Shown: piece by piece, positions 18,539-63,948 of the stretch | How the letters are laid out: every line of letters starts with the position of its first letter | How positions within the stretch are numbered: the stretch's first letter is position 1 | Source of the DNA: Ascidiella aspersa | Lineage: Eukaryota | Direction: 5' to 3' | Assembly (NCBI GenBank): GCA_963924565.1 | Contig: OZ004608.1 | Span: 5,828,001-5,892,000, forward strand | DNA: 64,000 nucleotides | Notes under the pieces: generated by a model | What the model saw: the letters and a program-made list of their open reading frames with translations, nothing else | Told to the model about the DNA's origin: nothing | Databases searched by the model: none | Position numbers and translations under genes: made by a program

Positions 18539-21500
18539 TCACATGAGCTTCACAGTGGAGCTTGTGGGCAGGAGAGGAGCAGAACTAGGTGAAGATTTAG
18601 AAGAAGAAGATGTTGGGAAGAGATCGTGGACGGACTTGGCTCCCTGCATGGTCCTGGGCATTGCGTGGGGTTGGTGCGGGTTTTCGGCGCTCAGGGCAGG
18701 GTAATACTGTCGGTAGCACAGGTAGGCGATGGAAAGGCCGAGTAGGGAGCCGACAACCACGTCTAAAGAAAAAAACATTTAAAACTTGTTTTTGTTCATC
18801 AAAAAAAAAAAATAAATAAATAAATAAATTCAATATTTTTTTAAGTTTCCCACATGATTTTTTTCACATTTTAGGCCAGGAATACAAGGAGGCTGTGGAA
18901 AAGCTTTAAAGTTAACGTATGAAAGGATCAGGCTGATTTTACATACGACCTTAATTTCAAGTATAGTTAGCAAGTAGGCTATGAAAAGGCCCGAAGCGAA
19001 CCTACAGCCTCGTCTGAAAAACAATTCTGTTAAAAATGTGCTGGTTTTTTAATGCTGGCGTATTCATCGAACATTTCGGGGCAGTCGCACAAGCGATTCA
19101 ATATCTTCAAACTAACCCAATCGTGATTGTTATGTCTAAAAAGTTGATAAGAACAAAATAGGCTACTAGTTATAGAATTATTGTTTAATAAGTCGCCAGC
19201 TACATTTTAAGCACATATAGGTGTAGGTAAGGCATAAAGGCAAAATAACCAGCATGTATAACAAAAAACAGTTACAAAGGAACACAGGTGTCATATGTGG
19301 TAACAGTGGCAAAGCCTCATTCTGTACCAGCAGTTTGAGCCTATACACTTAGTTGATTTTTGCTGCGTTACCTTGCCAGTGGTGCATGTAGTCACAGGTG
19401 CGACTAACGCCGACCATGGTTGCCAGTAGCAACGGCGAGAGGCTGACCACCATCCGCCAGGTGGCGCCACGTCCCGCCGGTCCAAAGCACTGAAGCTTGC
19501 CGGCCATGTAGAAGGCACAGAACCCCAGGCTGACAAAGGCGACTATCGGAAAAAAAAAAAGATTGTGATGTCAGAATTTTGAAAATACAATTCTCCCAAA
19601 AATCTAATGCAACTGCAAAATAAAGGAGTAGACAAAAATTCAATTCTTCTCCTTTGCATGTTTTTATATTTTTTTGGCATTATTCATTACAAGTTAGTTT
19701 TACATGATTTTCTATTTTTTGACCATCTTGATTAGAAATGATTTCTTCCATTCAAAAAATACATTGAGTAAATTTACTGGAAGTAATTTTTTGACTAGCC
19801 TATAGTGTCATTCGAAACACTTTTTTGGTGCGGTAGGTGATAAATGAAGAGCGCTTCTTACATGATGAATGGCCACTTGGAAAGCTCTTTCTTCCTTCTA
19901 TAACTGCATCCGGTGATCCAAGGCATTTCAAGTTATAAGTGGATGGTTGTCCGTCAGGTGGGTTACCATCTGGATAACATCTATGTGTCAACATATTGGC
20001 ACAGGTTTAATGAAAGGTTTAGTTAAGCTTTGCTTAGCAAGGCATTCCATAAAGTTTACAAATATTTAACAGCTGTTCTATACTAGGCACAATACAATAG
20101 GTTGAAATCCATACTTTTGAAAATAATATTCAATTTTAAACTTTTTCTACATTGGCAGTGGTTGTCAACGGTTAATCGAAGGTATGTGTCACCACGCCCA
20201 CTATAACAAAACCAAAACCTGTTTCAAAATACACTGAATGCCTCTGGAAAGGTTCTTTCAAAATATTAACATCTCATATTTCATTTAATTAATAAGGAGA
20301 ACAATTTAACCATGACAGAAAAATTATAATATTATTTGATAATTACATTAAACAAGAAAATTGCCTTTAAACTTTTCACCAAGACTTGCCCCTCTATTAA
20401 AAAACTGTCAGAACTGGAGAGATGGCAAAAGTTGTAAAGTTGTACTACAATATTACAAGTAACTTTTGTACCTGAAGTAGAAATCTGGCCTTGGTCTTCC
20501 GACTGACAGCTTTATTGCATTCGTGATAATACCATTGAGGCACAGGGCCAGCGACGATGCCAATATTCCTGGCAGGAAATCATTCTTTTTACCTCCGAGA
20601 ACATCGAATAAAACAATTGTCACAATCGGAGAACACACAGCAACCACCTGAAGTATATGTTAGAGAATTAATTATACATCATTGTAAACAAATATTTGGT
20701 TATTTTCGCTATAACCAATTATATTTAGGTAATATGTTTTATAAAATTTTGGTACAGCTTTGGTCATTTTTTTATGAAACAAAAGTGATTTTAACAAAAT
20801 TTTTTTAGAAAAACAATGTTTTTAAATCAATTAATTATATGTAAACTTTAAATAAATAGTAGCAAAACCAAAAAGCAAATTAATCATTCCAAGATTTTAA
20901 GGCATTAAAGAATAAGTTGACCATCTTTATACTCAAGCATTTCATGCAACAAAATGAATTTCCTAGCCAGATATTTATATAAGTGGAATGTTTCAAGTTA
21001 TGCCAGCATTGTATAAATATACTAAAATTAAAAAAACATTTTTACTACATTTGTAATTATATAATTTCTAGATTTCATACAAACAACTTAGCGGTCGAAA
21101 CAGTAGTAACAGCAGCATGGGGATTTTTGTAAAGCCACCATTCTTCTGGTTGTATCACTCTAATAAAGGGTTGCTGCCATTCTGTATAACTGCAAAAGAA
21201 AATAAACCAGATTTGTTTACTCAAATATACCAGAAAGTGGGTGCACTGCTAGATAAATAGGGGTAACAGATGCACCAAAGCTTATGGTAGACCCCACTGG
21301 TCTAATATAAATAGAAAACTGGAGCACATAGTTGATTTTTTCAGAGAAAAAAAAAATTAAGTTAACTTCTTTTCCACAATGAAAATTTATAATTCTATTT
21401 TTGCTAAAATAAATTGAAATAATACCTTGTTTCTAACCAATAAATGTAAGTAAAAGGAATTGAAACCTTATCCAGCCATATAAGTCACATAAGTGTCTCA

Positions 21501-23129: not shown

Positions 23130-25235
23130 ACGTTAAGAAAATACGTCGAGGCTGTGTTATCAAAACGTAATGTAAAACGTAGCACTAACGTCAAAATTAA
23201 CGTTAAGAAAAACCGCAATGCGACCAAATTTCAACGTCATTTGTAACGTACAAACAACGTTGATTACAGACGTCGATCTTAACATGTTTTACATTATTTT
23301 GGACGACACTTCGAACGTTTGTTGAACGTTATTTTTTAACGTTGAGACGAACTACAATGAAACAAATTTACAACGTCGCAGGTGAAATGCAAATAACGTT
23401 TATTACTGACGTAAAATCTAACATTTTTTAGACCGGTTTAGACGTGTTTTACACGTTTAATTTACGCTGTATATTTAACGTTCCGTAAAACTATAACGCA
23501 ACCAGCTTAGAACGTCATACGTGACGTAGAATTCACGTTCATTTCTGACGTCACAATTAACTTGTTATAGACAAATTTTAACGTAACTTCAAACGTTTGA
23601 TTAACGTTCTTTCGTAACGTTGAAACAAACCAAATGCAACTTATTTCAAAACGTCATAAATCACGTACAAAAAACGTTGTTTACTGACGTCAAAACTAAC
23701 GTCTTTTCAGCCACTTTTGACGTCGTTTAAACGTTTTTTCAATGGTATTCTTTAAAAAAATTGTGGCGCACCACAATGTAACCTGATTATAACGTAAAAG
23801 GTGACGTACGAACAAGGTTAATTACTTACTTTGAGGCTCATAACTTGTTTTAGGCTATTTTGTACGTCAGAGCGAACGTTTTGCTAACATTATTTTTAAA
23901 CTTTGTGACCACCATTGATGTAACTAATTTACAACGTGATACGTAATGTACAATCAACATTAAATTCTGACATCAAAGCTAATTTCTTGGAGACCAGGAC
24001 GCCATTTTAAGCGTTATAATAACGTAAATTTACCGTTTTGACTAACTACAATGTTATATAATTAAAACGTAAAACGTGACGTAACAACAACGTTACCTTT
24101 TGTAACAAGGATAATTTTTTTATGACTATTTTATACACCATTTCTAACGTTTTAATAACGTCATTTCTCAACCTTATTGCAAACCTTAATGTAACCAATT
24201 TAGAACGTCATAGGTGACGTACATGCAACGTTAATTACTCACGTCAAAGTAAACTTGATTTCATTTCATACGTTGTCGTGAGAAACCACAATGGATCAAA
24301 TTTATTAAATCATACGTGACGTACAATCAACGGTGATTTCTGACGTCAAAGCTAACTTATTTAAGACCGTTTTGGATGTAATTTTAAACGTTTTAATAAC
24401 GTTATTTCTTGACGTTGCGACAAACTAAGATCCAACTAACTGACAACGTCACGCGTGAAGTATAAATGACGTTGAATTCTATAAGGTCAAAGCTAACTTC
24501 TTTGACAGCATTTTGGACGTGATTTTAAGCGTTTTAACAACGTTATTTTTTGGTTTGTAACTAACAACAATGCAATCTAATTAGAACTTCACGTGACGTA
24601 AAAACTACGGTAAATACTGACATCGAAGCTTACTTGTGTTTAGAATTCGTCATTTTTAACGTTAATATAACGTTATTTTTCAACGTTATTACAATCTTCA
24701 ATATAACCAATTCAAAACATTATACGTGGCGTATATGCAAAAAGCAATGATAACTGTCGCTGAAGATAACTTATTTGAAACCATTTTAAATGTTATTTTC
24801 AAAAGTTCCAATAACTTTATTTCTTGACATTACGAAAAACTAAAACGCGACCAAATTTGCAACATCTTAAATGATCGTAGTCATTTCGAAGGTTACGGCA
24901 AACCACAATGCAACCGGATTAAAACGTTAAACGTGACGTATACAACAAGGTATATACCTGACATCGAGGTCAACTTGTTTTAGACTATTTTATACATAAA
25001 TTAAAACATTTCATTAATATTGTTTAGCGTTGATACAAACGTCAAAGGAACACAATTAAAACGTTAAACGTGAGGTAGAAACAACATCAATTAGCCTACT
25101 TACGTTGAAGGTAACTGATTTTAGACGAATTTTCGTGTCATACACAGTTTTTTCGACTGAGCTGAAGTACAATCGAATCAAAATGTCATATGTGTCGTAT
25201 AAAAAACGTTGTTTACCGACGTCAAAACTAACTTT
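23130..25235. repeat. Diverged tandem array, about 139-bp unit, about 15 copies, very ACGT-rich (left subterminal array)
   Basis: The anchor (C)TGACGTCAAA.CTAAC recurs at about 23269, 23408, 23547, 23686, 23969, 24240, 24342, 24619, 24960 and 25218. Confidence 0.85.
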
Positions 25236-26105: not shown

Positions 26106-28004
26106 CAATTGCATTCTACGGCGAGTGAACACCCAAATTTTTTAGACAATTTTAATGCAAATCTTGATCTTTGTATCATGCCAGCGTAAATACCTTGGGT
26201 GTGCATAAAACGCCAAATGAACACTTGAAAATTTATTACTGAAGATCTCGACTAAAGGCTTGATTAAAAGTTCAAGGTGGGATTTGAAGAAGGGTACACG
26301 TTAAAGATATTCCTCATGAACTTGGCTGCTCATCAATATTTACAGGTAAATTAGTGATTAATATTTTCAAGATTTTTGTTAATTATTATATTTATTTGAC
26401 TCTTACTGTTTTGTTTTATGCTTGCAATTGCCCTAGATGCTAACAACAAAGACTTTAAAATGTATCCTGGCTGCGTTTAAATTTCTTTATTTGGGCAGCA
26501 ATTTTTTTCAAAACCTACCAGTGATAGTTATATAATGTCACCACAATTTTAATTTTATATATTTCTGACCAGTCTGCATTCTGTGGACCAGAAGCTACAC
26601 AGCACAAAACGCTATCACACAATAAGTAAAGGCAAAATAAACATAATATGACAGAATTATTGGGAAAAAATTATACCATAGACTAGTACTAAGAATGGTC
26701 TATATTTTTTTAATATAAAAACAAAGTTTAAAACTTGTAAAAAACACTAATATTCATTATTAAATGTTATTAATTGGCAAAAAAATGAGATAAAAATTCT
26801 TGATACTAAATTTTACCAAACAAATTCAGGTTGCACAAGAAAATACATTAACAGTGATATAAAATTTCTGTGCTTGGTTAAATTAGTAAATGGCACATCT
26901 AAATTTTGAAACTATGGTTGAATTGTGTTAGGATTCCAAACGTCTGGATCATAATATTACCAATAGTGAGAACAATTAATCACAAAACACTTTGCTGACA
27001 TGATAAAAAAATCAAAAGCATTAAATAACTATCAGGTTATTTTAAATTTTTTGTTTAAGGCAACCAGTTGGGCATTTATTGTACCATGTAGAAGCACGTG
27101 CATCATTGCAATTAGTTTATTTGGCTTTGTTCATTTCGACTTGGTTTCATAAGGTAAATGAAGTTAAAAGTTATGGTTGTAGTCATTAATCACATTTCCC
27201 AGTTAATGCAGCTTAAACAGATGAAAGTTGGATGGGGTTTTCCTTAGCTTGACAAACACATGAGCCATTTTTATAAGGTATATATTCCCCTGTTCGACCC
27301 TGTAGCCCTAGCAGTCGCTTCCTTATTCCCTAATTTTTATATTATTTGCCAACAGCTCTCTCGATGTATCACACACGCATTCAGATTCGGATTAAACTGA
27401 TGGATTTTCGTTTTACACCGCTGGATTTGTATTGTTCTTATTTTTTCAATATGTTGTTGTTGTTAACGTTACTTTCCTGTTTTAATGTGCATTGTTTTAC
27501 ACATAGTCTGTGAAATGCAAAACTTTTTAAATTTTGTCTTTTAGACTGTGTTAGTGTAATAGAGCAATTTAAGTAACACTATAAAATTCGTGTGTTTTGC
27601 AGGTCCACAGACCAATTTTCTCAGTTTTCTTGTCTTTTTTACAGTTCTTTATTGTCAACATTTTTATACTGCCGTGTTTGTTTTACTTAATACTATATTA
27701 TTTCTATATTTTCCTGGATGGTAATTGTTTAGAAGATTTAGTAAGAATTTGCAAGTGTAAATAATTACAGTCAGATATGTCACAACAAGTATAAGTGTTT
27801 TTAAAGTTCAAAAAAATCATTATTATGTTTCTTTTTTGCGCATTATACCGTAGTTGCGAACGTAATTTGTAACTTCATTGCAAACGTAATTTGTAGGGCA
27901 TGGAGTCCAAACTATTACGCAAACATAACAATGTGAACGCTTTCAATAACCTAGTTTTACAACGTAGTTTCCAACGTCGCATGAACTTTGTCCGGATCAC
28001 ACAT

Positions 28005-28380
28005 TTTTACGTAAAAATAACGTCTGTGATAAACTTATAAATAACGTCGCTGAACATCGTAATTTGCAACGTCCAATCTACGTCGTCTGGAATAGACACT
28101 TCTACGTAAAAACAACGTTCATGATAAACGTATAAATAACGTAGTTGCACAACGTCGCATCTAGGTCGTAAAGTGTCGACGCTTTTACGTGAAAATAACG
28201 TTCATGATAAACGTATAAATAACGTCGCTGAACATCGTAATTTGCAACGTCTAATCTACGTCGTCTGGAGTAGACACTTCTACGTAAAAATAACGTTTAT
28301 GATAAACGTATAAATAACGTAGTTGTACAACGTCGCATCTAGGTCGTAAAGTGTCGACGCTTTTACGTAGAAATAACGTT
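28005..28380. repeat. Near-perfect 178-bp tandem duplication (right subterminal array)
   Basis: AACGTCGCTGAACATCGTAATTTGCAACGTC occurs at 28043 and 28221. Confidence 0.9.
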
Positions 28381-40726: not shown

Positions 40727-43700
40727 TCAGATATTCTTCTTTGCGACACTTTGTGGCTTGGATTTTGGACGCTTTATCACGGCTGTGTACATGTCGTTGC
40801 TGGTAGGTTGGCTGTCGGGAGTTGCAAGGTGACCAGATGCTTCGTCGGCAAAGTTATAGGTTTGTGACGACCCTGTTTCATTTTTTTGTGGTTCAACTCC
40901 TTAAAATCATATAAATGGTATACCGCTGCAATCATAACCGACTTTGCGTGTGATATCTGCACCCTGTTTGGGAATAATTTATCTGACGCCTTGGACCGTT
41001 ATTACACCGAAAGAATTGTTACTTTACACACACCTGACGCAATCTCTAAAGACTTTTTGTAAAAGTGTAAGCACAACAAATTATTCGAAGCTCGTAAATT
41101 TCCGCATTGAAACCTAAAGGGGCGTATTTCATTGCATATGTCTGATTAGGCCGGGCTGGCAACTTATAAAATTCAAACCCAAAGAAAAAGTTATTCCATT
41201 GCCAGCAAAACACAACGTTGAGGAATTACGTTTTTAGTTTACAATTTAAATCGTAAGCACAGACGGAAATTTGCAATATATTGTGTCCTAAGTTGCACAA
41301 TCAGCCTAATCGTGGTCATTTTAAAAGTTTGTGATTGAAATAAAAGGTTTTGGACACGTTAACATCCTCTTTACACTTAGTAAATTAAATATAGGGCACT
41401 TTAAAACCATGAAATCTTTGCAAGTTATTACTTTCACCGTTTTCCACTTTTCTTGGTATCCAAACAAAGACATAACGACTTCTAAAAACAACATGGCTCG
41501 ATTTTCTTACCACGTGTTGCTTCGGAGTAGACCGCTTCCTGTGTGGAAAGGGATACGTTGTCTTCCACCGTGCTGTACTCCACACTCAATCCACCACTTG
41601 TACCTTCGTTTTGCCCATAAGTAGCCGGATTAACTGCGGTGGTTGAGGTTTCCATTCCTGTTATGTTCAGGTGCGAATATTCGTTGTCGTATTGTTGCGC
41701 GCTTTCGAGTTGCAGCGTTGAGTATTCTTGCAGCGGTTCTGGCAACTCGTAATCATTTTCCGCTTCATCCTGGTCTGTACGAGTCGAAATAACTTTTAAA
41801 TGAAGAAACCTATGCAAGATATGAACTTAAAAATAAAAAAAACGAATTAAATATAGTAAAGTTACACTTTTGAATTCTACGGCAGGAGCAAAACAGATTA
41901 CAATTTTGTGAGGATTTCGGTCAACTATATGAGGTGATTGAAGCATAACAACCGGATGTTGCAGTTGGCATACAACAAATATCAAATTCGTAGCAGAAAT
42001 AGGCAGCATTTTATGGACATTCAAATACCTTTTATATTCACAAGGATACCTATGCGTGCACTTTTTGGGACCTTTATTATTCATTCTTGGTCTATATATA
42101 ATGCCTCATATTCATGTAAACACATCCAGGCCGATCGATCGTTCACAAAAGGTCGTTTAGCGGTTAAAATATCTCCCATAATCATGGACTGAAAATACAG
42201 TAAAAAAAAAAGTTAAAAAAAATATGTTTAACTTAGAATAAACCGTTATGTGGTTGTGTTGCAGCTGTTTTAGTCGCCTCCGTCCTTCTACGCTTCCTGA
42301 AATGGAAGCAAAGCACAGATAAACAAACCACGGTAAAGCATTATTAACCAATGCCTTCCACCCACCTCAGACAATGCACAGCAGCAACTACTGCGCAACA
42401 AAGAAGTACAGCTCCCGCGATTGAAGCGGCTAATGTTGTGGTTAGATTTCCTGGGCCTCCAGATGACATGGTTGTGCTGTAGACTACAAAGCAAACACGT
42501 GTAAATCTCTTTTGATAACAATTTGACCATAAACGAGAAAAAGGTATTACTCCTGTTTGGTTGTCAATTAAAAGAAAAACCCAAAAAATTTCGCAGCTAA
42601 AGCCAATTTACGATTAGGCTTACCATACTCTATTTGGTTATTAGGCAATTTTAAATGAACTTATATTTACCTTGCGATCCAGTTTCTGTTGCTATAATAA
42701 AGCTTTCTGTCACATGTGAAGTCACACTGTCGTTGTGGGCCTGGTCTGTAGACCATTTGTGTAATCCGCCTTAAATAGTTATTGGCAATAGTTAAATCAG
42801 TGTTTTTTTTTTACTTGGGGGCGCACCTAGAGGCATTTTAAAACGAGGCGGCGCACTTTTTGAGCGAAGCGGGCGCGAAATATTTGAGCTCTACCTGTTT
42901 TTTTCTTAAATAGGTTGCAATTTTTTATTATATAGGCTTTATAGTATATTTAAAGAGACTCCACCCTTGAGACCAAAATAAGAACAACATTAACTTGGCA
43001 ATAAAAGACAGTTAGGAATAGGGCGTAAATAGGACTAATACCTAATAGTCGTAACAATGACGAAATCGGAATAAGACCTAATTGGACAAAATAAGGCCAG
43101 ATACAACTTTATTTAACACCATACGTAACTATCACCAACTTCCCGAATATTTTCAACCTTATTATTATTAACCCAATTGCTAACACCACCAACTACCCGC
43201 CCATAAGCCCAAACAGAGGCAAAAAAACAGGGCCAAAACAGCGGCTCCCAAATATCGGCAGAAAACGGCCAATGCCAAACAGGTGTCACCCAATCATCCC
43301 ATACCCTAATCATCCCATACCCAGTCTTGGGCGTAATATTGTCCATTTAGTTCTTATTCCGATTAATTTTGGGCTTAGTTTGACATGTTTAGGTCTTATC
43401 TAGACTATTTTAGATCTTTTTCCGTCTGGTCATTGCTGCGAATTTGGCGTTATTATGTCGGTGGTCTTATTACTATGGTATTGTAGATTATCTGATTTAG
43501 ATATTGCTGTTTTGTAGGTCTTATTATGTTTTCACTTGAAAGTACTGTGGAATCAATAAGCTAAGCTTAATTGGAAGGTAATTTCTAATTAGTGTTAATC
43601 CACTGTAAATATTAAAATTGCAGCGACTAGTATATAGTGGTTTGGTTTCCTGAAAAGTTTCCAGATGACATGACTGCGCTAAAGTCTACAAATCAAACCC

Positions 43701-45029
43701 ATTTTTTTTAAACCATTTAGCGGTATTACTCCTGTTTGTTTGTGAAGTACAAGAAAAGCTAAAATTTTCCAGTTTCAGCAAATTTGCTATTACCTCACTC
43801 TATTTGGTTATTAGCAGTTTTAAAAGTTCTTATATTTACCTTGCGATCCAGTTTTTGTTGTTATATTAAAGCTTTCCGTCACGTATGACGTCACGTTGTC
43901 GATATGACCCTGGTCTGTAGACGAATTAGGAAATCCGCATTAAATAGTTAATGGCAATGGTTAAGTCGAAGACAATAGTGAACTTCTTGTAAGTCTTATG
44001 TGTGCTTTACCTGCCTTATTTACCCCGGGCTCCAAAAATTAGGGGTTTAGCATAACAAGTTTGCTGAGCAATAGTAGCACAATTCTTAACATCTGTGCAA
44101 CCTTGTGGGTACGTTTAGTTTTCTCATTTTAAACGTTTATAAAGAAAATGTTTATTGTACGCTTTACGATACCTGAAATGCGTGAGTATTAGCCTGTTTC
44201 GAGACGTTATAGTTAGACAAGGGCGCATTTTTTAACAATACAGATTACATGTTTGTAGCACAATTTAAGCCGCTATCAAAATGCGGAGTGTGTTCAACAC
44301 ATTTACAACAGTCTTGTAGTCCTAAACGTTCAACCTTTGAAAGACCTGTTAAAACGTTGTTGGTTGATAAAGCGTAGACTGTTGTCGCAATGTTTGTAGA
44401 AACTTCATTTTGTGACTCGAGAGTGGTGAACGGTTGTGTTGTTTGTGGTGGAGCTTGTTCTACAAATTAAAGCACGTGATTTGTATAAAGTCAATTTTAA
44501 GTGTAAATAGTCAGACTTACTGGTCGTTCTCTGGCAAATGTATTTTTCTGATCGGCTACATTGTATATCCACCCAAGGATAGTCCTGGTCAGTTTTTTCT
44601 ATCGCTGCACAGTCCTCCAGCCAAAATCCGTCGTTCGGTTCTCCAGCTTTCCAATTTCTATAATTTAACCGTAATCCGTCCAGCCATTCGAATTTGTTGC
44701 CAGTTGCTCTTTTCAATCCGATGTAATATAGTTCTGTAGCTGAAAATACATGCGCAATTACAATACGTCACAACTCACGCACTTCTATGAAACTGTTAGG
44801 AAACATCACCTGTAATAGTTCGCAGTTCTTTCGTTAAAAATGTTTGAATCTTCGACGAGTTGACTTTCGCAAGAGTTCCATTCAATTTAACACAAGCTGC
44901 TAAAGCTTGGTTGAAATCCTTTTTGTTGGTGGTTTCAATGTGGTATTCCAGGTTGTCCAATTGATGCCAAATAGCGAAAGCACTACCAAAAAATGTTAAA
45001 ACAATTGTCACACAAAGCAGCTTATTCAT
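40727..45029 (-). CDS. L1: type I membrane C-type lectin receptor (signal peptide, EPN CTLD, S/T stalk, TM, tyrosine-motif tail), about 436 aa
   Basis: Exons: 45029-44810 (signal + CTLD N-half), 44739-44521 (YIGL..WKAGEPND..C..WVD..C..YICQ), 44459-44346 (weak donor; the alternative GTAAAT downstream is in the same phase), 43914-43840 and/or 42745-42671, 42483-42366 (TM LAASIAGAVLLCCAVVAAVHCL), 42296-42244 (RKRRR), 41774-41511 (YELP, YSTL, YSHL, VEYSTV, VYSEA), 40899-40727 (DMYTAVIK..KNI*). All phases are compatible. Confidence 0.82.
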
Positions 45030-48396: not shown

Positions 48397-51300
48397 CTAG
48401 AGGTTAAATTGTTCTTGGGTCCTAAACTCGACGTATCCCGGGTCTTTTTTCTCATTTTCCTGGACTGGAAACACTGGGTTGGGTTTCACGTAACCGCCTT
48501 CTTCTTCTTCGTGAGTACATTCTTCTGGACCTTAAAATACTATGGATTATCATGCAATTTGTTAAAAATTGATAAAGTATTTTTTTCTTAGGTTTTCTGT
48601 ATATATTACAAACTTAATAATTTTGGTACATCACTGATTGTTGCTTAAAACGTTTTTTGAATTAAAGCATTTTCATTCTGCAGCGGTATATGAGAATTAA
48701 GGAGACAAGTCATAATTTTAGACGATTAAAATAAAAAATAATTTAGGCTTACTGTTAAATAAACTTATTAACCTGCTTAATTATCGCGTAACAATTCCTA
48801 GATTTGTCGATATACTTTCGTTACATCTTTTATTAGTTTTTTTTATTATAAGTGTTGCATTCAGCGATGAGTGAAATTTCAACAGCTATTCACTTCGAAT
48901 TATTCCCAGATTTATTGAACAGTATTTAAATAATCTAACAAGCAAAGTTTCGCATATTTTAAGGAGTTTAGTCTACTCTAGAGAATACAATAGGAGTTTG
49001 CGAATTTCCGGTGGTAGTTTAGATTGAAAATAGAAACTTTCAGTTTAGAATCGCGTAATAACTATCCATTTCACGGTGTATTTCGTGGCATAGAATTTAG
49101 TCTATTCGACTCATTTCGTATCCGTTCATTTTGGTGCCAACACTAAAAGGAGGACTAGTTATAGTGCACCTAGCATTACGTTTACCGTTGGTGTTAACGT
49201 AGATATGTGATGTGCTTGCTATGGGAACTTCGTAGGCACTTTCCATCACCACTTCAGAATTCTTTTTAGGGAATCTAGCAATTTAGGAAATTTTTAACTC
49301 TGGGTAAATGGGCAAGCTATTGATATTAATTACATTTACAATGTCACACAAATCTTTTGTTTATATTAAGGGCAAATTAGGTTAATTTATGTCTTTTTAC
49401 TTTAAAAAATAATAGTTTCATGAGCATCAGCTTATTGAATTTCTATAAATACCCAAAACACGTTAAACATAATAATCATAATACGTTTCGGTTGGCCATC
49501 CTTGCGCTTATTGGCAAAAGTGAAAATCTAAACAGTTGTTTTGTTTATATTAAAACGTTGTCACCCATCTCGAGCAACAGTTTTTATTCGGTTGTATGTC
49601 TTTACTTGCCTTATCTGGTGACGTAGCTGAAAAATATTTATGCCAACGGATGCCAACAAGAGAAGAACAAGAACGACTACCGCTATGGTGAGACCGTGGG
49701 CAGATTCCGTTTTAACAGACCTGTTTTGAGCTATGAATAGAGCAATAGTTAAGTGTAGTTTTCTAGGTAAATTTTATTTCTACAACACCCTTTGTTCTAT
49801 AAGTAAAAAACGTCTTGAGTAGGGTATGACTAAATTTACCACTTTTTATAGAATCCCGGTATACACTTATATATTCCCATTTTGCCAGCATTTTATCATT
49901 AATGCCATTTTTAAACCGCTTTTTGCGTATTGCGTCGCACTATTTTTGGTGGTGGCGCAAAAAGTGTCTTAGCGGCAACATGTTTAGGTCCGTGCTCCGC
50001 AACCTTTTTCACTTACGGTACACCAACAGAGCCTGAACAAATTCGGCGGCACACCTCCGAAATATTTGACGACCGACAATAAGCAACATAAGCAAATATA
50101 TTTCTGGTTTTACGGGTTCTTCTGAAAATATCTTAAGACGGTTGAGGTGCTCAAAGTGCACCCCGTGAAGTAGCTGATAGGAAAACATTGAAGGCTTTAA
50201 ACAGCATATTACAAAAATTGAAATCTGATAATTGGGTTTTGTACTTTTTTGCCTAATTTACTTTTTTGGAAGATGCTGTTTTTAACAATACTTTTTTAAA
50301 GATTATTTTTAACAATCACTGTAATACATTTACTTCATGGGTTTAAGCGTATGGATAACCTTACTTCAAACTTTGGTGTAAAGTAAACGATTACTGTATA
50401 TTTATACTCCTGGTAGTTGTACGAGTTAAATAAACTATTTTATAGCGTTTAAATTTGGCGATTGAACCTTACTTAGGTTTTAAACGAGGTTGAAATATAA
50501 AGGAAAGTTGTTTTTTGTCAAAAGTAGCATTTAAAAAAAAGAAAAAAATAAAGCACATTGAGAAGCATCGTGACACACCTGACGGTTTAGCGGCATAGCA
50601 GTTTGCCGCGGCACACCGGTCACGTGATGTTGTGAAGTGCTTCAAGTTAATTAGTTGGGCTTCCCCAAGGCGCAAAACAAAAGCTAATATTGCATCTAAA
50701 AATAACTCCCTAACTTAAACACGAAGTTAACTCACGTTTTAAAGTATTAACCCACTCCTATTTGGTTGCCGGTTTATGTAACAAAACCGTAGCCCGACCC
50801 AATAGTTTGTGGTAGTTTTCCGGGTTTCTGGTTTTCCAACGTTATGGATTTTGTATTTTATATTGGGATCTATGCATGTTTAAGGAAATCTTAAACAATT
50901 TTATTCTTATATAATTGGTTTAAGATATGTTTTTACTATGCTTATCTTTTTGGCTGTATTAATGACTATTTTTGACCAATGTAAAATTATGGCAAAATCA
51001 CATGAATCAGAATTGTCTTACCTGGTACGCAGCTGGAAACCAAAGTAGTTGGTGCCGTGGTATTAGCTTTGCCCATGGAGACAGAATTCCCGGTGGTCGT
51101 TTGTTTTGCGTTGGTTGTAACTGGAATGAATGGCGAGGAAGTGACAGAGCTCGTTTGCATCACGCTACTTGTCTTAACAAGATCTAGAAGTGAAATATTT
51201 ATTATGGCTTCACTTTAAGACTAAGGCAACTTAACGTGAATATTATATGGAGCTAAATTAGTAACTCGTTTTGTGGTGGTCTGTTGGCTTAAATTTGTGC

Positions 51301-52279
51301 AATGCATGATAAGGTTTAAAGTTTTTATTAAATATGGCAAAACATCGCTTGTATAACAGCCCTATTTGAAGTACAATGTTGGCCTACCTAAACTAGATAA
51401 ACTATAAGTTCGACGCGTTTTTTGAAAGTAGTTTTGTATAGGTATAGCGTCTCTTTTAACGCCTATAGTGAACTTTTACTAAATTGCAATTTTTTCTTGG
51501 TTAATCTAGTTATTTTAATTTTTGCACGGGATATATGGTTATAGTGTTTTAAGTAAAACTTGTTCAATTCAAAATTAGCTGGACGCAATTTGGTGACTTT
51601 TCTCCGAAAATTTTATGGGCACCCTTAAACAGAAATCTCTGATCCTTGCCACATTTTTTCAGCTATTTTGATCTATTTAAATTCTTATAAAGAACTTGTA
51701 GCATTTTCAATTGAGCTGTCTGGTTTCTGTTTGTCTGTTTTATTTAAAAACCAATAAAATGTATTCACTCACCAATAGTTCTTTGACAAATGCAACAAAA
51801 TTGGGTGGTACAAGGAATATCATACCTCAACATACTGTCACTCCAGCTCCTGGCATTTCCCATGGTGACGCAATTCTCACCCTCTCCATGGTTGTCAGGT
51901 TGATTAACTCCCCATGACTTATACACCAAAGCTGTCCCATCCAACCATCGAATCTCACCACCACTTATTCGCTTCAAACCGATGTAAAACCCTTTATTTG
52001 GAACTGGAAATAATATTAAAATGAAATACATAAACCTCAAATGTATCGAAACAGTTTAGAATAAGACATACCTGTTAAGTTTGTTAGAAACGTCTGGATC
52101 TTTGACGAGTAGACTTTGGCAAGTGTCGCATTCATTCCAGCACAAGCAGAACTTGCTCCATCGAAGTCGGTCGAACCATTAACAACAGCGTATTGTAAGT
52201 TGTCCAACTTGTTCCAATCCACAGCAGAGGAATTCGTCGCCAGAAAGAAGCACAGAAATACAATTTCAGTAAAACCCAT
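48397..52279 (-). CDS. L2: type I membrane C-type lectin receptor (QPD CTLD, S/T stalk, TM, YEVP/YVN/GYVKP/GYVEF tail), about 314 aa
   Basis: Exons: 52279-52072, 52003-51773 (FYIGL..WGVNQPDN..C..C..CICQ), 51183-51022, 49730-49610 (TM GLTIAVVVLVLLLLASVGINIF; GC donor AG|GCAAGT), 49274-49186, 48530-48397 (ends QFNL*). Total 945 nt, in frame. Confidence 0.82.
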
Positions 52280-54546
52280 TGATTAGTAAAGCGACTATTA
52301 AACTGTACAAAAAAGTGATTTCAATTTCGGAATTCGTTTAATTCTAACCAGTTTACGTTGTATTTAAAATCAAATGATATTTTAAATCGTGCAATATTGT
52401 AAGTTGAACGTATATATATATATCTAACTGTTAAAAGACAGCTGCAGTTTAGCCGAACTTTAAATACATACCACCAGCAATAAGCCCGATGTATTGTGAA
52501 TACTTATAGAGTTTTTGCGTAGTTATACACAATGAAACAAATCATTATACCGTGGGCTCTTCGTGACTATAGCATGCTACGTCATTGTCTGGTAGGTTGT
52601 TAAAGAGGCGGTATGGCAAACGGCATCAAGCCTACATCGCGCCTAACGTTGCATTATATACGCGTTCATAGCAGAGTAAGTTTTCTAAGTCGCGTATTGT
52701 AAGTCAATACACAGAATGTATTCATGACGAAAACAAATAATAGTTCATGATAAACCGGGACGCCGTTCCGCCTTACTTCGACAACTGCCATATAGTTATA
52801 GTAAAGCAAAAAAAGCGCGACATTTTATTGATTTTGATACATATATGTTATGCTCTATATATGCCCTTATCGGTGGCTTTTCCAGGCAAGCCACCCAAAT
52901 CTCTATATTGCGTTGCGCCTTTGTGCAACCTTGTTGGAAAATATGTGTCATCATACAACAATACAGGAAGGTTAATTTAAGACACTGCAACACAACAAGG
53001 TAATTTAAATTTGAAAGTGTTGAATGTTTTTATCCCGAAAAGTAAACCTTAAGCATTTCATGCCTATAAAGCCAACCTTTGGCGAATATGTACTGGATTA
53101 TAGCTAAAGGATTTTCGTTTAAAAACAAATATATGACTAACTTCGAGGAATTTTATTCGTTTCGGCGGGAAAACGTATCTCATTTTGCCGCGACGATCTT
53201 AAATGTGAATATATAAAAACAATGAGTGTTTATTTATTCTTGATTATTTTGAACTATTCCCTTATGCACACCTTAAACGTGGTTGTTTTGTATTTCCGTA
53301 AAGATCTTAAACGTTAAAAATGTTTTTACATCAACACCGCGTGATAAATAGCTTCCTGTAGTTCACAGTCCTGTTTACGACTTTGATCGTTGCTGACTTT
53401 TATAAATCGCATGTTAAGTCTTAGATTAGTTGTCAAGTCTTAGATTATAAAACAACCGCTTCTCAAACATAAGATTTTCGTAAAGAGTTGTATAAATTTA
53501 CAATGTATGGAAAATTTCCACCTAAGTATACCAATTTGATTTGTAATCGACAGTAACAATTCAATATTGCAAACATAATACATTTTGAGTTTATTTCAAA
53601 ATACACAAAGTGCTTTAATGTTTCGAGATATTTTTGGTATGTTTAGTAAACGTGACGTAAACAAATTCACTATAGGCTATGTCAGGAATGGCCAAGCTTT
53701 TAGCATAATGGGCCGCATTGCCACTTTCAATATTTCGATGGGCCGCAAAACATTTTAAATAAAAGTTGTGACGTCATAAGTTACATCATAAAACAACTCA
53801 ACTTACAAACACCCGCTCTTCGATACTGAACTCATGCGCCAATATGCAAGGGCGAAAAATTGAGTTTACATGCCGTACCATGCCATGGTAAAACACCCTT
53901 GGGCTGATATTAATTCTTAAAACGGCCCGCAAAAACACACATTTAGAAAAGTACACACTTACTTAACAATGACGGAGGCACAAGTTTTCAATGGTTGTTA
54001 AAATGCCACATTAGACGCGAATGTAGTCTCAAAAAATATAAGATTAAGCCTACATCAAATACTGTGCCCTCTACACGTTTTGATGATAGTCGAAACAATT
54101 GTTTTGATTAAAGGCTTCTGAAAACTTTTTAGTAGCGTTTAGCGAAATGCTAATATAAATCAAAATAAACCGACTTCTAAGTAAAACCAAAAACAATTTG
54201 TGTTGGCTAACATTGTGTGGAACTTTAAATTGTTTTTATTTGTAACAAATCACAAAAACAACACTAAACATCAAATTAAAACAAGACCTGAAATTTGAAC
54301 AAAGATTAATAATAACCGAACATAATGATAATGATGTACAAATAATGATGAGTAACAATTAGGACGCGTGATTCACTAGCAATAAGAAAACAAAACAGTT
54401 CAGAATGCTGCGATCATAGCAGTTATCTAAATATATATAAAAATGTTTCAGTAGGGAACGTTGAATGTCTCATTTCACGTAAAATATCTCCCGAGAATTA
54501 ATTTAACCCAACCGTGTTTTATTGGTAATTAATTTGCTTTAGCTGA

Positions 54547-57500
54547 TTAGCATGATTGACCTGGCGACTTGAACTCGACGTATCCCAGGTCTGTTTCATC
54601 ATTTCCCTGGACCGGAAACACGGGGTTGGGATTCACGTAACCGTTTTCTTCGTCTTCGTCAAAACATTTTTTTAGGTCTTAAAATATTATAAATTAAATA
54701 TGCAATTTGTTTAATAAATATAATTTTATGTTGCGTGTTTTACTTTTGTTGGTAACGTAAACATGTCACTATGCCTGGTAGCAACAGCATATTTATGTAA
54801 ACATGTCACGTTCTGCACTACGTGTTTACCGTTGGTGTTAACGTAGACGTGTTTTGGACGAGATGTGCTTGTTATGGGAACTTCGTAGGCACTTTCCATC
54901 ACCACTTCAGAATCTTTTTTGGTAATAATCTAAAAATTAGGGGCTTAGTTATATGTAGCTAAATGGGCAAGCTATATTTATTTTCCTGTTACAGGATAAA
55001 CTACGGTATATAAGTACGTAATATTTGCAAAGCAAAATGAACTTTGGTTTATTTTAAATTGATTTACGTGCTAAGAATGTTATTTAATTTACTAATAATG
55101 TCCAGTTAGTACAGTGCAGTTTAAGATACAAGATTTAAAAAAGGAACTAATTTAATTCTATTAGCACCAGTGTTTTATATTACTAAAGATACTGAAATAT
55201 CAAAAAATGTTTAAAAGTTTCAGTTTTGTAGGCAGTCATTAATATCGTATAGTTGTATGTTTTTTTTGAGTTGTCACACATTAAATAATCTTAGCAACTC
55301 TTGTATTATTCAAGGCTAATTTCTCGTGGGCGTTGAAATTATGCTGTACCAAGAAATAAAAAACACGCAGTATGCAATCACAATTCCAATGTAAACCAAT
55401 GATGGCTACTTGTTTGGGGACGCTAGCAAAATGCCAACGCAATAAAGCAACGCGTGCATAATGCGTGCGCCGTGCATGCTCTAGAGCAGTGCAGTGTCTT
55501 AAAGTGCCACAACTTAACTCAGTGTACGAAATTAGAAATATGGGCAAATCCATGACAGTTTTAATATGGTTGAATGTTTACTTGCCCTTTCTGGCGACAA
55601 AGCTGAACAACATTGACGCAAACTGATGCCAATAAGAGAATTGCAAGCACGATTATCACTATGTTGAGGAGTTGACCAGAATCCTTTTTAACAGGCCTGT
55701 TTTGAGCTGTGAACAAGGGAATAGTTATTTTAATCTGAACAACACTTTATTCTAAACATTCTTCTGCCAATGTTAAACTCTGATGTGTAGTCAATTACCT
55801 ACAGGTCTGGATTAGATTATAATACCGTCCGTGTAATTGTTAGATATTTGATCGCCTGTTAAAATATAATTCTTTATAATAAGCTTTTGTTTGATATAAG
55901 TAGATAAGTATCATAAGTTCAGTTAAACAGAGCAGCTTACCCTGGAGCACGTTAATCTTTATAAATCTTTATAAAGCTAAAATTAATAAAAACGTTATAA
56001 TGCCTGAACATATATTGTTTCGCGAAAATTACGTATAGTTGGGTCTTTGTATTCAAAATTTGTGTTTCTGTTTTAATAGACATAAATTACTCAATAATTA
56101 TATTTTAAACTGTATTTAGATGCCTTGTTTTCGGAATACGCGTAAAATATTGCGTTAACCGTTTCAGTTGCTTGGTTTGGCACTGCGATCGTGTTTAACC
56201 TTTCTACCCACGAAGGTGATGCATCGGACATCGTGGATCTCGATTTATTTTGACTTAAGTGTCGCTTATTTTGTCAACCAACCTTTGCAATTTGCCTGAA
56301 ACCTTAACTTAGAGTTTCACCACAGACTGTATATGCTTTTGTAGCTTTGCCGCGTGGCCAATTATACAGAGTCGTGGCGCATTTAAGTTTTCTTAGCGGC
56401 ATGTTTCGAATGCGCGGAAGTAATTTAATTTTAATAGATTGACTTTGCCCTGGCGTCCTCAGTGCGCAAAAACTAAAGCTCTAAACCGCGTCGCGAAATG
56501 TATATAGTCAATAGTTTAAATGCGAATAGGTTGTCTATTTAATTTGCAATGTTCACTTCTTATTCCTTGTCACAGTCGTTCAATATTGCAAGACCTTGGT
56601 AATTCTACTTCTAATTTTTTCTTTTAAGTTTTCTAGTGCTAGGATATTAACGCGCGTTGCATAAAAGTGAAACATATTATCTTTATTATTACTTGTATAA
56701 GAATCTATTTTGGCACCGGATTTTTGGCCCTGATTGGGTTTTTTGGTGGTAATGGATCGGGTTAAAAAATGGGTTAGACTATTTTACAGGTATATCACTT
56801 CTATTGTAGTCTTATTCGGAACTGTGTTTTATCCCGATTGTGATGTTCTTCTTATCACGGAGTTATAAATGGAATCCAAATTTTCACACATTCCTTCTTT
56901 TTAAATCTATTCAACAAAATGAGAAGAAGCAGATTTGTCTTACCTGATATAGTGGTGGATTCCAAAGCAGTTGGTGCAGTCGTGTGAGCTTTGAAAACCG
57001 TCGTCGTTTGTTTTGCGTTGGTTGTAACTGAAGTAAATGGTGATGAAGTGACCAAGCTCGTTTGCATCACGCTACTTGTCGTTATAAGTTTATCTAAACA
57101 CAAAATGTTGATTGGATTTACGTCAACGCGAACAACTAATGTACATGCTAATTTTATACAAAGAACGTTTAGCTTAAAGTATAGGGTAGTTGTTTCTTAA
57201 AACTGATTTTTGAACATTGTCATTGTTTTAATTTGTTTTGGGGTTTTATTTTTAATGGAATTAAAATTACCGGAGCAGCTGTTTTTTGATTTATATTACT
57301 ATGCCTGGTAGCAACAGTTTATATATTGTCAGTGTTTATTAAATACATGCACCACCTATAGAGAATATAACATTCCTATGAGACTTAATTTTTGCAAAAA
57401 TAAACTCGATAAAAATTCTATACGGCCCAATTTTTATGTAAGTTTTTCAACCTAGAACGTCTTAAACATGCAATTGATGATGGTTCATCTAGTAAGTTTA

Positions 57501-57990
57501 TTTTTTGCGCTTGGTGTGAACGTATAACTTCTTTGCAATATGGCAGCTGTATTTTACGTGGTACTTGTATTACACGATATAACCTATTAGCTTCGAGCGG
57601 GTCTGACATGTTTTATGTACAACTATGGAAGCAATTACCCTCACAAATTATTTTGACCATCATTCAATTTTGATTTCGTTCAGGAAAACAAAAAACAAAT
57701 TTAGCTTCATGTAGGAAAGTAACGCTGGAAATGAAATATTCTCACCACTTGGTCTCTGACAAATGTAGGTTTTCTTGTTGTCGCATCGTATGTTATTCCA
57801 AGGATACTCCTGGCCACTTTTTTCTATTTCTGCACAATCCTCATCCGGCCAAAAGTCGTTTAGAGCACTATAATGCGACTCGTACGACTATAAGGTTTAT
57901 AGCAACCTTATGATAACCTCTTATACTGTAGTTACATTTATCTTATTGCTTTAGAGTCATAGCTTTCCTTAAAGAAACCGCCTCTTCAAA
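54547..57990 (-). pseudogene. L3: C-type lectin receptor with deleted signal/CTLD N-half; stalk, TM and tail exons still open (pseudogene or headless adaptor)
   Basis: The CTLD remnant 57861-57746 (NDFWPDEDCAEIEKSGQEYPWNNIRC..YICQ) is fused directly to sequence homologous to the L1 upstream region (57862-57990 vs about 45079-45195). Intact exons 57093-56944, 55706-55582, 54929-54830 and 54677-54547 are paralogous to L2. Confidence 0.75.
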
Positions 57991-61566: not shown

Positions 61567-63948
61567 TTATAACGGCCGTGTATACATGTCGTTGTTGGTA
61601 GGTTGGGTGTTGGAATCTGCAAGGTGACTAGATGCTTCGTCAGCGAAGTTGTAGGTTTGTGACGACTCTGTTTCATTTCCTTGTGGTTCAGCTCCTTGAA
61701 AATCATACATAGGTTATACCGTTGCACTATAAATATGGAAATTTGCGTGCTATCTGCACCCTGCTTGCTCGGAAATTTCCGTATTGCAACGTAAAGGGGC
61801 GTATTTCATTGCAAATGTCTGATTAGGCCGGGTCTGCGGACTAATTGCCAGAAAAACAAGTAAACAGTGTAAAAAGTTTTGGTCAGTTTGATTTTATTTT
61901 TTGGAAAAACTACATATTTAGAGTTCGCGTGTTTTGAGTCAGATGCAAAAAAACAGGCGGGTTATACCATTTTTGTTCGTAAATTGAATTTGGGATCATT
62001 AAAACCACGGAATCTTTGCAAGTTTGTTACTGTTTTCCATTCTACTTGGTATCGCTCCGAAACACATAACTACCTGTAATCATGCTTTCTCTTTAGAATA
62101 TAATCATTTCCATAATTTATTTAATGTCTTACCACGTGTTGCTTCGGAGTAGACCGCTTCCTGTATGGAAATGGATACATTGTCTTCCACCGTGCTGTAC
62201 TCCACACTCAATATACCACTTGAACATTGGTTTTGCCCATTAGTAGCCGGATTAACGGCGGTGGTTGAGGTTGCCATTCCTGTCATGTTCAGGTGCGAAT
62301 ATTCGTTGTCGTTTTGTTGTTTGCTTTCGAGTTGCAGCGTTGAGTATTCTTGACGCGTTTCTGGCAACTCGTACTCGTTTTCCGCTTCATCCTGGTCTGT
62401 ACGAGTCAAAATAATTTCAAATGAAGAACCGACCGGCCTATGCAAGACATAAACTTAAAAATAAAAAAACGAATTAACAATAGTAAAGGTACACTTTTTA
62501 ATTCTACGGCAGGAGCAAAATAGATTACAATTTTGTGAGGATTTGGGTAAACTATATTAGGTGATTGAAGCATAACAACCGGATGTTGTAGTTGGCGTAC
62601 AACAAATATCACATTCCAAACAGAAATAGGCAGCATTTTATATACATTGAAATACCTTTTTATTCACAAGGATACCTATACTTGCACTTTTGGGGGGCTT
62701 CATTATTCATTCTTGGTCTATATATAATGCCTCATATTCATGCAAACTTATCCAGGCTGATCGATCTTTCGCAAAAGGTCGTTTAGCAGTTAAAATGTCC
62801 CACATAATCATGGACTTAAAATACAGCAAAAAAAAAAGTTAAAAAAAATACGTTTAACTTAGAATAAACCGTTATTCGGTTGTGTTGCTGCTGTTTTAGT
62901 CGCCTCCGTCCTTCTACGCTTCCTGAAATGGAAACAGAGCATCGGTAAACAAACCACGGTACACTTTTGCATCAACCGAACCTTCCACCCACCTTAGGCA
63001 ATACACAGCAGCAACTACTGCGCAGCAAAGAAGCACAGCTCCCGCGATTGCAGTGGGTAATGTTGTGGTTAGGTTTCCTGAAAATCTTCCAGATGACATG
63101 GTTGTGTCGTAGACTACAAATCAAAAACGATTTAATCTGTTTTTTGAAACCATTTGGCGAATGGTATTACTCCTGTTTAGTTGTAAATCAAAAAAAAAAT
63201 AAAAAAAATTCGCAGGTTAATCCAATTTCCTATTACAACACTCTATTTAATTAGTAAGCGGTTTTAAATGCACTTATATTTACCTTGCGATTCAGTTTCT
63301 GTTGTTATATTAAAGCTTCCCGTCACATCTAAAGTCACGTTTTCGATAAGAGCCAGGTCAATAGACAATTTATGTAATCCGCATTAAATGGTTGATGGCA
63401 ATGGTTAAATCGTAGACTATAGTGAATATTTCGGAAATCGTAAGTGTGTTTAACTTGCCTTTTTACCTCGGGCTCAAAAAACGAGGGTTTTGGCACTCTG
63501 AGTTTGCAGTTATATTGGGACAAATCCTAATATCTGTACAACATTGTGGGTAGGTTTAGTTTTCAGATCACTCTTCGATTAAATCACGGGGATATCTTAC
63601 ATTTTAAGGTTCATATAAAATGGTTAGTGTAGGCCTAACGATAATTAAAATGCGTAAATATTAGCCTGTTTTGAGATTTTAACCTAGAAAACAAGGTGGC
63701 ACTGTTATATAATATTGATTGTATGTTTGTAGCACAACTTAAGCCGCATATTCAGACATAATCACCTTCAAAATGCGAAATTTGTTCAACACATTTACAA
63801 TAGTCTCGTAGTCCTAAACTTTTAACCTTTGAAAGACCTGTTAAAATGTTGTTGGTTGAAAAAGCGTAGACTGTTGTCGCAAAGTTTGTAGAAACTTCAA
63901 CTTGTGACTGGAGAGTGGTGATAGTTTGCATTGTTTGTGGAGATCGTT
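61567..63948 (-). CDS. L4: L1 paralog, 3' part (stalk, TM, tyrosine-motif tail); CTLD exons expected beyond 64000
   Basis: Exons: 63948-63838, 63328-63284 (shifted acceptor), 63113-62993 (TM), 62922-62870, 62396-62133 (YELP, YSTL, YSHL, VEYSTV, VYSEA), 61694-61567 (ends DMYTRPL*). Colinear with L1. Confidence 0.75.

Follow-up and report, generated by a model that had tools for sequence, protein, structure and literature searches.

Introduction

Can one exon of a receptor tail carry an ITAM-like tyrosine pair and a consensus ITIM side by side, and does such an exon make a dual receptor? The question is raised by a cytoplasmic tyrosine exon of 264 nt (41511..41774, minus strand) in a 64,000-nucleotide stretch of the Ascidiella aspersa genome (contig OZ004608.1, positions 5,828,001 to 5,892,000), which we call the window. 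A first-pass annotation had proposed a dual Syk/SHP switch receptor with selection acting on the motif tyrosines. Tails with both motif types are already in print for the FcoR receptors of Botryllus (PMC12582321) and the Alr receptors of Hydractinia (10.1101/2022.03.25.485889), and an ITAM receptor has also been described in an ascidian (PMC5465252). Because invertebrate tails with ITAM-like and ITIM words have been described, the observation of a single exon is in itself unsurprising. Here, we examine the gene around the exon, its copies and more distant paralogs, and the signalling partners encoded in the genome. Coordinates without a prefix refer to the window, and those elsewhere in the genome (G000) carry a contig label.

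Results

The tyrosine exon belongs to a predicted intact lectin receptor gene

Nine exons on the minus strand, from 45029 to 40727, give one open frame of 437-465 residues, the range arising because six in-phase donors (44346 to 44262) are possible for exon 3, all of which keep the frame. The model consists of a signal peptide, a C-type lectin domain spread over two exons, a stalk, one membrane helix and a C-terminal tail. Exon 1 (44810..45029) was recognized by hydropathy and by a Pfam Lectin_C match just under the cut-off (E 5.7e-4), and exon 2 (44521..44739) by a Lectin_C match with an E of 9.7e-10. The Ser/Thr-rich stalk is encoded by exon 3 (44346..44459, with an uncertain 3' end) and by two stalk exons of 75 nt, 4a (43840..43914) and its duplicate 4b (42671..42745). 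Exon 5 (42366..42483) encodes the transmembrane helix, with a 19-residue hydropathy peak of 2.58, and exon 6 (42244..42296) the basic stop-transfer stretch RKRRR. The tyrosine exon is exon 7 and supplies most of the cytoplasmic tail; the last exon, exon 8 (40727..40899), contains YNF and DMYTAVIK (40772-40795), the latter being a possible Csk-type site judged by its sequence. The predicted tail has 163 residues, nine tyrosines and 15% Asp/Glu. With all exons open and all splice sites canonical, the gene is predicted to encode an intact type I C-type lectin receptor, and the model supports the earlier placement of exon 7 in a receptor cytoplasmic tail. A complete Ca2+/sugar site comprises EPN plus WND; the lectin domain carries EPN, but WVD where WND is expected. 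A high-copy repeat occupies 42734-43638 in a stalk intron.

None of the indexed RNA runs contained the stretch. One raw RNA run was sampled to about 6%: exon 7 had no reads and no splice joints, exon 8 had two reads with at least four differences each, and the remaining coding exons had no reads either; nearly all reads in that sample map to the repeat at 42734-43638. The bare exon 7 would fit an exon that is skipped, which could happen in frame because its phase is 1-1, or a gene that is silent or decaying, so that the motifs in this copy would be inherited relics. We consider this quite unlikely, as the other coding exons are equally bare in this small sample save for the two reads on the last exon, and the gene itself has open exons and canonical splice sites.

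Motif content of the tyrosine exon

Exon 7 has AG/GT bounds, an open frame and seven tyrosines, and its translation agrees with the motifs described earlier: DYELP, EYSTL-x11-YSHL, VEYSTV and AVYSEA. YSTL and YSHL (41668..41724) provide the two YxxL/I words that an ITAM requires, and their spacer of 11 residues lies inside the relaxed rule of 6-12. The canonical ITAM spacer is 6-8 residues, and no pattern with such a spacer was found in exon 7 or in 11 representative tail exons. VEYSTV (41566..41583) fits the ITIM consensus S/I/V/LxYxxI/V/L. All five tyrosines that had been counted as motif tyrosines are present; YELP and YSEA match neither the ITAM nor the ITIM consensus. In 100,000 shuffles of the exon 7 residues, the ITAM pattern with a 6-12 spacer arose by chance in 2.1%, the ITIM pattern in 23% and the two together in 1.1%. 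The switch motif ITSM has the consensus TxYxxV/I; none of the nine tail tyrosines has Thr at -2.

Database searches gave little more. No Pfam family, including the ITAM model, matched exon 7 or its counterpart in the paralog A12, although motifs this short are easily missed. None of 86 candidates among longer proteins was homologous to exon 7, and a profile search of 1.84 billion representatives returned a single match (E 9e-4) to an ENEY[GS]KL-rich repeat protein without clear homology. A protein atlas placed the exon in just one unnamed cluster (0.90, low recognition).

The words might also be sorting signals of a lectin uptake receptor rather than SH2 sites. The AP-2 type sorting signal class is Yxx-hydrophobic, which YSTL, YSHL, YSTV and YTAV all match, and lectin receptors are often endocytic. 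Nevertheless, a single sorting signal would be enough, and nine tail tyrosines together with an invariant Glu before Y17 of the exon suit kinase substrates better, which makes the endocytic reading very improbable.

A large cluster of lectin receptor genes with several kinds of tail

The search with the lectin exon against the genome gave 150 scored matches from 207 candidates, of which about 130, counted from the match table, fall in a tandem array of 1.7 Mb at C2:5.87-7.55 Mb. Covering most of this interval, we found 93 lectin exons whose core is complete and open; EPN occurs in 41 of them, QPD in 24, and EPN combined with WND in 18. Among proteins, the lectin exon of the present gene had three matches, the only named one being a Clavelina protein at 43%. 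We regard the cluster as a large birth-and-death family of more than 100 related genes. Some ten related lectin exons form another group on the same contig, at C2:2.39-2.79 Mb.

Near the window, the genes form repeating units made up of types A, B and C. The tails of types B and C are unrelated to exon 7, so that the cluster has at least two unrelated tail classes, and contain the words YEVP, YVN, YV[NK]P and YVEF, which may be Crk- or Grb2-type sites. The type B gene in the window (48403..52282, minus strand, approximate bounds) has a QPD lectin and a tail with YEVP, YVN, YVKP and YVEF, in which no ITAM or ITIM pattern was found. A type C lectin gene at 54555-57900 (minus strand) apparently has neither exon 1 nor the first half of exon 2. 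Past the cluster end, exons resembling a PAP2-type lipid phosphatase lie at 18542-19679 (minus strand; weak Pfam match, E 0.042), and degenerate tandem repeat arrays occupy 23197-25232 and 27915-28380.

Further tails were seen elsewhere in the array. About a dozen lectin genes at C2:6743000-6885000 (plus strand) have a long tail exon with 5-8 tyrosine words (YAKI, YSKL, YSVI, YAAI, YSSI and YTSM). Last exons at C2:6904625, 6914962 and 6923576 (plus strand) carry three to five VANPLY repeats, that is, NPxY or PTB-type sites, and a terminal DLYSQVKK.

Close copies do not reveal selection on the motif tyrosines

Exon 7 has 13 matches across its own genome, all on one contig. The first-pass annotation had inferred selection from a second copy in the window, L4 (A02; 62133..62396, minus strand), in which, as it stated, the five tyrosines are retained while QQYD has become QQND and ATYG has become ATNG. 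In L4, lectin exon 2 lacks one nucleotide (just past the window end), the stalk acceptor is broken and the last exon has gained 2 nt; with two frameshifts the copy is likely a pseudogene, although an assembly error is possible. Exon 7 and L4 differ at 21 of 264 bases, against 41 of 466 in the preceding intron, with a dN/dS of 0.88. When uniform evolution was simulated to the same distance, all five tyrosines survived in 45% of 3,000 runs. Retention in a broken gene whose exon has diverged like its intron is thus at chance level, and we rejected L4 as evidence of selection.

Across 11 close copies, the tyrosines of YELP, YSTL, YSTV and YSEA are kept in all, that of YSHL in eight, that of QQYD in seven and that of ATYG in six. 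By parsimony, motif sites show fewer changes than average, which is not significant (P 0.16-0.35) in a comparison of low power. The claim that the motifs are better conserved than the rest of the exon is therefore not supported here, on the very comparison that the first-pass annotation had named as decisive against it.

The close copies bear in two ways on the reading of the motifs as relics. The lectin exons are intact in only three of the 11 (the present gene, A03 and A08), leaving the ectodomain broken in eight, and the divergence of the exon is near that of the intron. On the other hand, the AG/GT bounds of exon 7 are kept in all 11 copies and in A12, and the mean dN/dS among close copies is 0.52.

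The loss of the YSHL tyrosine in three copies is one event on the tree, and one of these copies has an intact ectodomain. A08, A10 and A11 have no last exon. The three copies without the YSHL tyrosine are also without exon 8 and have a B-type last exon within about 180 nt, and because of this they look chimeric; the likely chimeric tails, joining a type A exon to a B-type last exon, lie at C2:6110456-6111013, 6183287-6183817 and 6260133-6260663. Four short A-like genes (C2:6037843, 6053852, 6176972 and 6253819, minus strand) have tail exons with an early end, in which the first pair tyrosine is lost and YELP is the only intact one of these words. On the opposite strand, a distant copy (C2:6983348-6983590, plus) is interrupted by a frameshift and two stops.

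An open stretch at 42188-42084, containing EYEAL in the intron before exon 7, was considered as an additional exon. It is out of phase with exon 6, missing from A05 and A12 and disrupted in A03 and A04, and was rejected despite being conserved among copies.

Deeper paralogs keep the tyrosine words and vary their geometry

A12 (C2:6.335-6.338 Mb) appears intact, and its counterpart of exon 7 is identical at 40 of 82 residues (49%), with a dN/dS of 0.42, a value that also speaks against relics. It retains EYELP, EYAVL-x11-KYSRL, LEYSTV and VEYSEP. Keeping the five tyrosines and both patterns at this divergence had a P of 0.006-0.047 by the hypergeometric test and 0.005-0.035 by simulation, and keeping both the ITAM and the ITIM pattern had a P of 0.018 by simulation; Tyr and Leu evolve slowly in general. 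The supposedly non-motif tyrosine of ATYG is retained as well, and we did not accept the contrast between motif and non-motif tyrosines against A12 (5/5 vs 1/2) as a real difference. The terminal tyrosine of the tail is Phe in A12.

Distant subfamilies were located partly through the tyrosine words themselves. For subfamilies F, G and H, the exon homology beats at least 999 of 1,000 shuffles, while for I, J and K the homology to exon 7 is not significant or only weak by this measure (for I, 179 and 98 of 1,000 shuffles reach the score). An alignment of seven exons that span several subfamilies leaves only E16, Y17, Y32, S33, L35 and Y82 invariant. A search begun from the 93 lectin exons rather than from the motifs found the word pair downstream of 15 on the sense strand and one on the antisense strand, and terminal words similar to DMYTAVIK after 18 and none, respectively; after 46 of the 93, none of the four sought tail words was found. 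No other part of the tail exon is as well conserved as the pair. Genes bearing it have an EPN head in 13 of 15 cases, and none of the 24 QPD genes has it. We did not accept this link as co-evolution, since relatives share labels.

The two words of the pair are separated by 11 residues in type A and in A12, by 15 in G and H, by 18 in I and by 21 in F, so that three subfamily groups exceed the 6-12 rule. The +3 residue of a pair word is Met in G and H. In subfamily I, the first word, VEYSTL, itself reads as an ITIM, and EYST[LMV] therefore looks like one motif class. The tyrosine of VEYSTV is kept in all 11 close copies and in A12; across subfamilies the ITIM is kept in G, deleted in F and found on a different tyrosine in H and I. 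Since subfamily F has the pair without VEYSTV, the ITIM is dispensable. Conservation in other paralogs, which the first-pass annotation had put forward as a check, thus extends to the tyrosine words, which probably matter because the deeper paralogs keep them, and stops short of the ITAM geometry, given the varying spacer and an ITIM that moves or disappears.

The genome encodes kinases and phosphatases that could read the tail

Genes of the Syk family, a Shark-like gene and an SHP2 gene, the partners expected of a dual receptor, were found in the genome. Judged from SH2-bearing exons, homologs of SHP2, Csk, Src and Grb2 are encoded, the SHP2-like gene lying at C4:19.91 Mb. Two intronless genes with a Syk/ZAP70-like order of SH2, SH2 and kinase domains lie at C1:3416118-3417920 (L072) and C1:31715622-31717440 (L082), and exons for SH2, ankyrin repeats, SH2 and kinase domains make up a Shark-like gene at C5:18934000-18948000 (L178, L179). 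For the Syk-like gene that was tested (C1:3416118-3417920), Syk/ZAP70 was nearest among natural chains. Its predicted protein has about nine residues between the aligned SH2 domains, as compared with about 52 in human Syk, and the short linker recurs in the second Syk-like gene and in all three unnamed homologs. These kinases thus appear to lack most of interdomain A, which helps keep Syk inactive (PMC13344425).

With so short a linker, the vertebrate spacing rule for ITAMs may not apply, which would help a dual reading of the tail. This argument is weakened by the report that tandem SH2 families share a similar three-dimensional SH2 spacing regardless of linker length (PMC12132298), so that a short linker need not alter the spacing preference.

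Discussion

We tentatively favour, at close to an even chance, a tail that acts as a multi-site phosphotyrosine docking platform, likely dominated by SHP2 and Csk, and the x11 pair is probably not a dedicated ITAM. SHP2/Csk-type docking is favoured because VEYSTV is gp130-like, the distance between sites is GAB1-like, YTAV is close to YSSV, and the spacer of the pair varies. In mouse gp130, the same VEYSTV hexamer surrounds pY757/759, a docking site of SHP2 and SOCS3 (PMC12849345, PMC2225448); the residues at +4/+5 after the tyrosine, also contacted by SOCS3, are VH in gp130 and ED here, and the sharing of the hexamer is likely convergence. SHP2 binds two GAB1 sites 31 residues apart (PMC12132298), close to the 34 residues from YSHL to VEYSTV. 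By analogy, the terminal YTAV resembles YSSV, the Csk site of Cbp (PMC3492796).

On this docking model, ligand bound by the EPN-type lectin domain would cluster the receptors, and a Src-family kinase would phosphorylate tyrosines preceded by acidic residues. SHP2 would dock on VEYSTV, perhaps jointly with the upstream YSHL, and Csk may dock on the terminal YTAVxK. Overall, this would damp or tune the signals that neighbouring receptors send through their B-type (Grb2/Crk-like) tails.

A true dual receptor, in which the x11 pair recruits a Syk or Shark kinase and VEYSTV recruits SHP2, the balance setting the outcome, is possible but on present evidence somewhat doubtful. A spacer of 11 has a precedent in Drosophila Draper-I, whose ITAM YxxI-x11-YxxL binds Shark (PMC13148388), and the spacer is unchanged in A12, which keeps both patterns at its distance; candidate Shark-like and Syk-like kinases are encoded. 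The dual model keeps its standing because the pair is best conserved, F does without the ITIM, A12 has the terminal Phe, and Draper shares x11. These points weigh against the docking model, as do the loss of exon 8 in A08, A10 and A11, the 23% chance rate of an ITIM pattern, the absence of reads on exon 7 in the RNA sample and the partly word-led discovery of the distant subfamilies. Against it stand the spacers of 15-21 in other subfamilies, the second pair tyrosine lost in three close copies, one with an intact ectodomain, the missing Pfam ITAM match, and the tails of Hydractinia Alr, in which such words parse as either motif (10.1101/2022.03.25.485889). Draper also differs in its EGF-like repeats and NPxY site and in that binding has been demonstrated (PMC13148388), and the variable spacer within the lectin family sets the latter apart. 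We file the exon 7 tail neither as a canonical ITAM nor as a switch receptor.

The nearest described systems share parts of this arrangement. The FcoR receptors of Botryllus schlosseri are type I receptors from tunicate multigene clusters whose tails each hold several tyrosine words (ITIM, hemITAM, core YxxI/L/V and a C-terminal [A/D]VYxxV), and FcoR3/4 carry both motif kinds, swapped by allele or splicing (PMC12582321). Unlike the present receptor, they are built on Ig ectodomains and partner with fester (PMC12582321), whereas the Ascidiella cluster has predicted C-type lectin receptors and about 130 lectin-exon matches. The Hydractinia receptors Alr1C/D/H/I/L are likewise clustered, with a single tail exon readable as ITAM, ITIM or both under the same two consensus definitions, but are cnidarian Ig receptors tied to allorecognition with an unrelated ectodomain (10.1101/2022.03.25.485889). 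A hemocyte glycoprotein of Halocynthia roretzi is an ascidian membrane protein with ITAMs that is linked to phagocytosis and aggregation; compared by its description, it is not presented with a lectin domain or an ITIM in the available account (PMC5465252).

Our literature search, covering titles and abstract openings outside subscription papers, found no account of such an array of type I lectin receptors in tunicates. Vertebrate NK-complex lectins are type II C-type lectin receptors of immune cells. The CD94-like lectins of ascidians are also C-type lectin receptors of immune cells (PMC5465252); they and the NK-complex lectins are type II, whereas the receptor described here is type I with a stalk and a long C-terminal tail.

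What makes the exon more interesting is its setting: the type I lectin receptors form a very large array that turns over quickly, some of its tails look chimeric and the motif spacing varies naturally, and the animal is likely to be closely related to vertebrates. Should the motifs function, the array offers ready-made variants (spacers of 11, 15, 18 and 21, the ITIM present or absent, the second tyrosine present or absent) with which to probe the distinction between ITAM and ITIM outside vertebrates. A bolder and, in our estimate, unlikely view is that of a module-shuffled complex of more than 100 lectin receptor genes, in which EPN or QPD heads are combined with tail exons, the pair spacer of 11-21 tunes the choice between Syk/Shark and SHP2, and the readers are Syk-like kinases without most of interdomain A. 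Were it true, the array would stand as an independent parallel to the NK receptor complexes of vertebrates and would provide a natural allelic series on how ITAMs and ITIMs separated.
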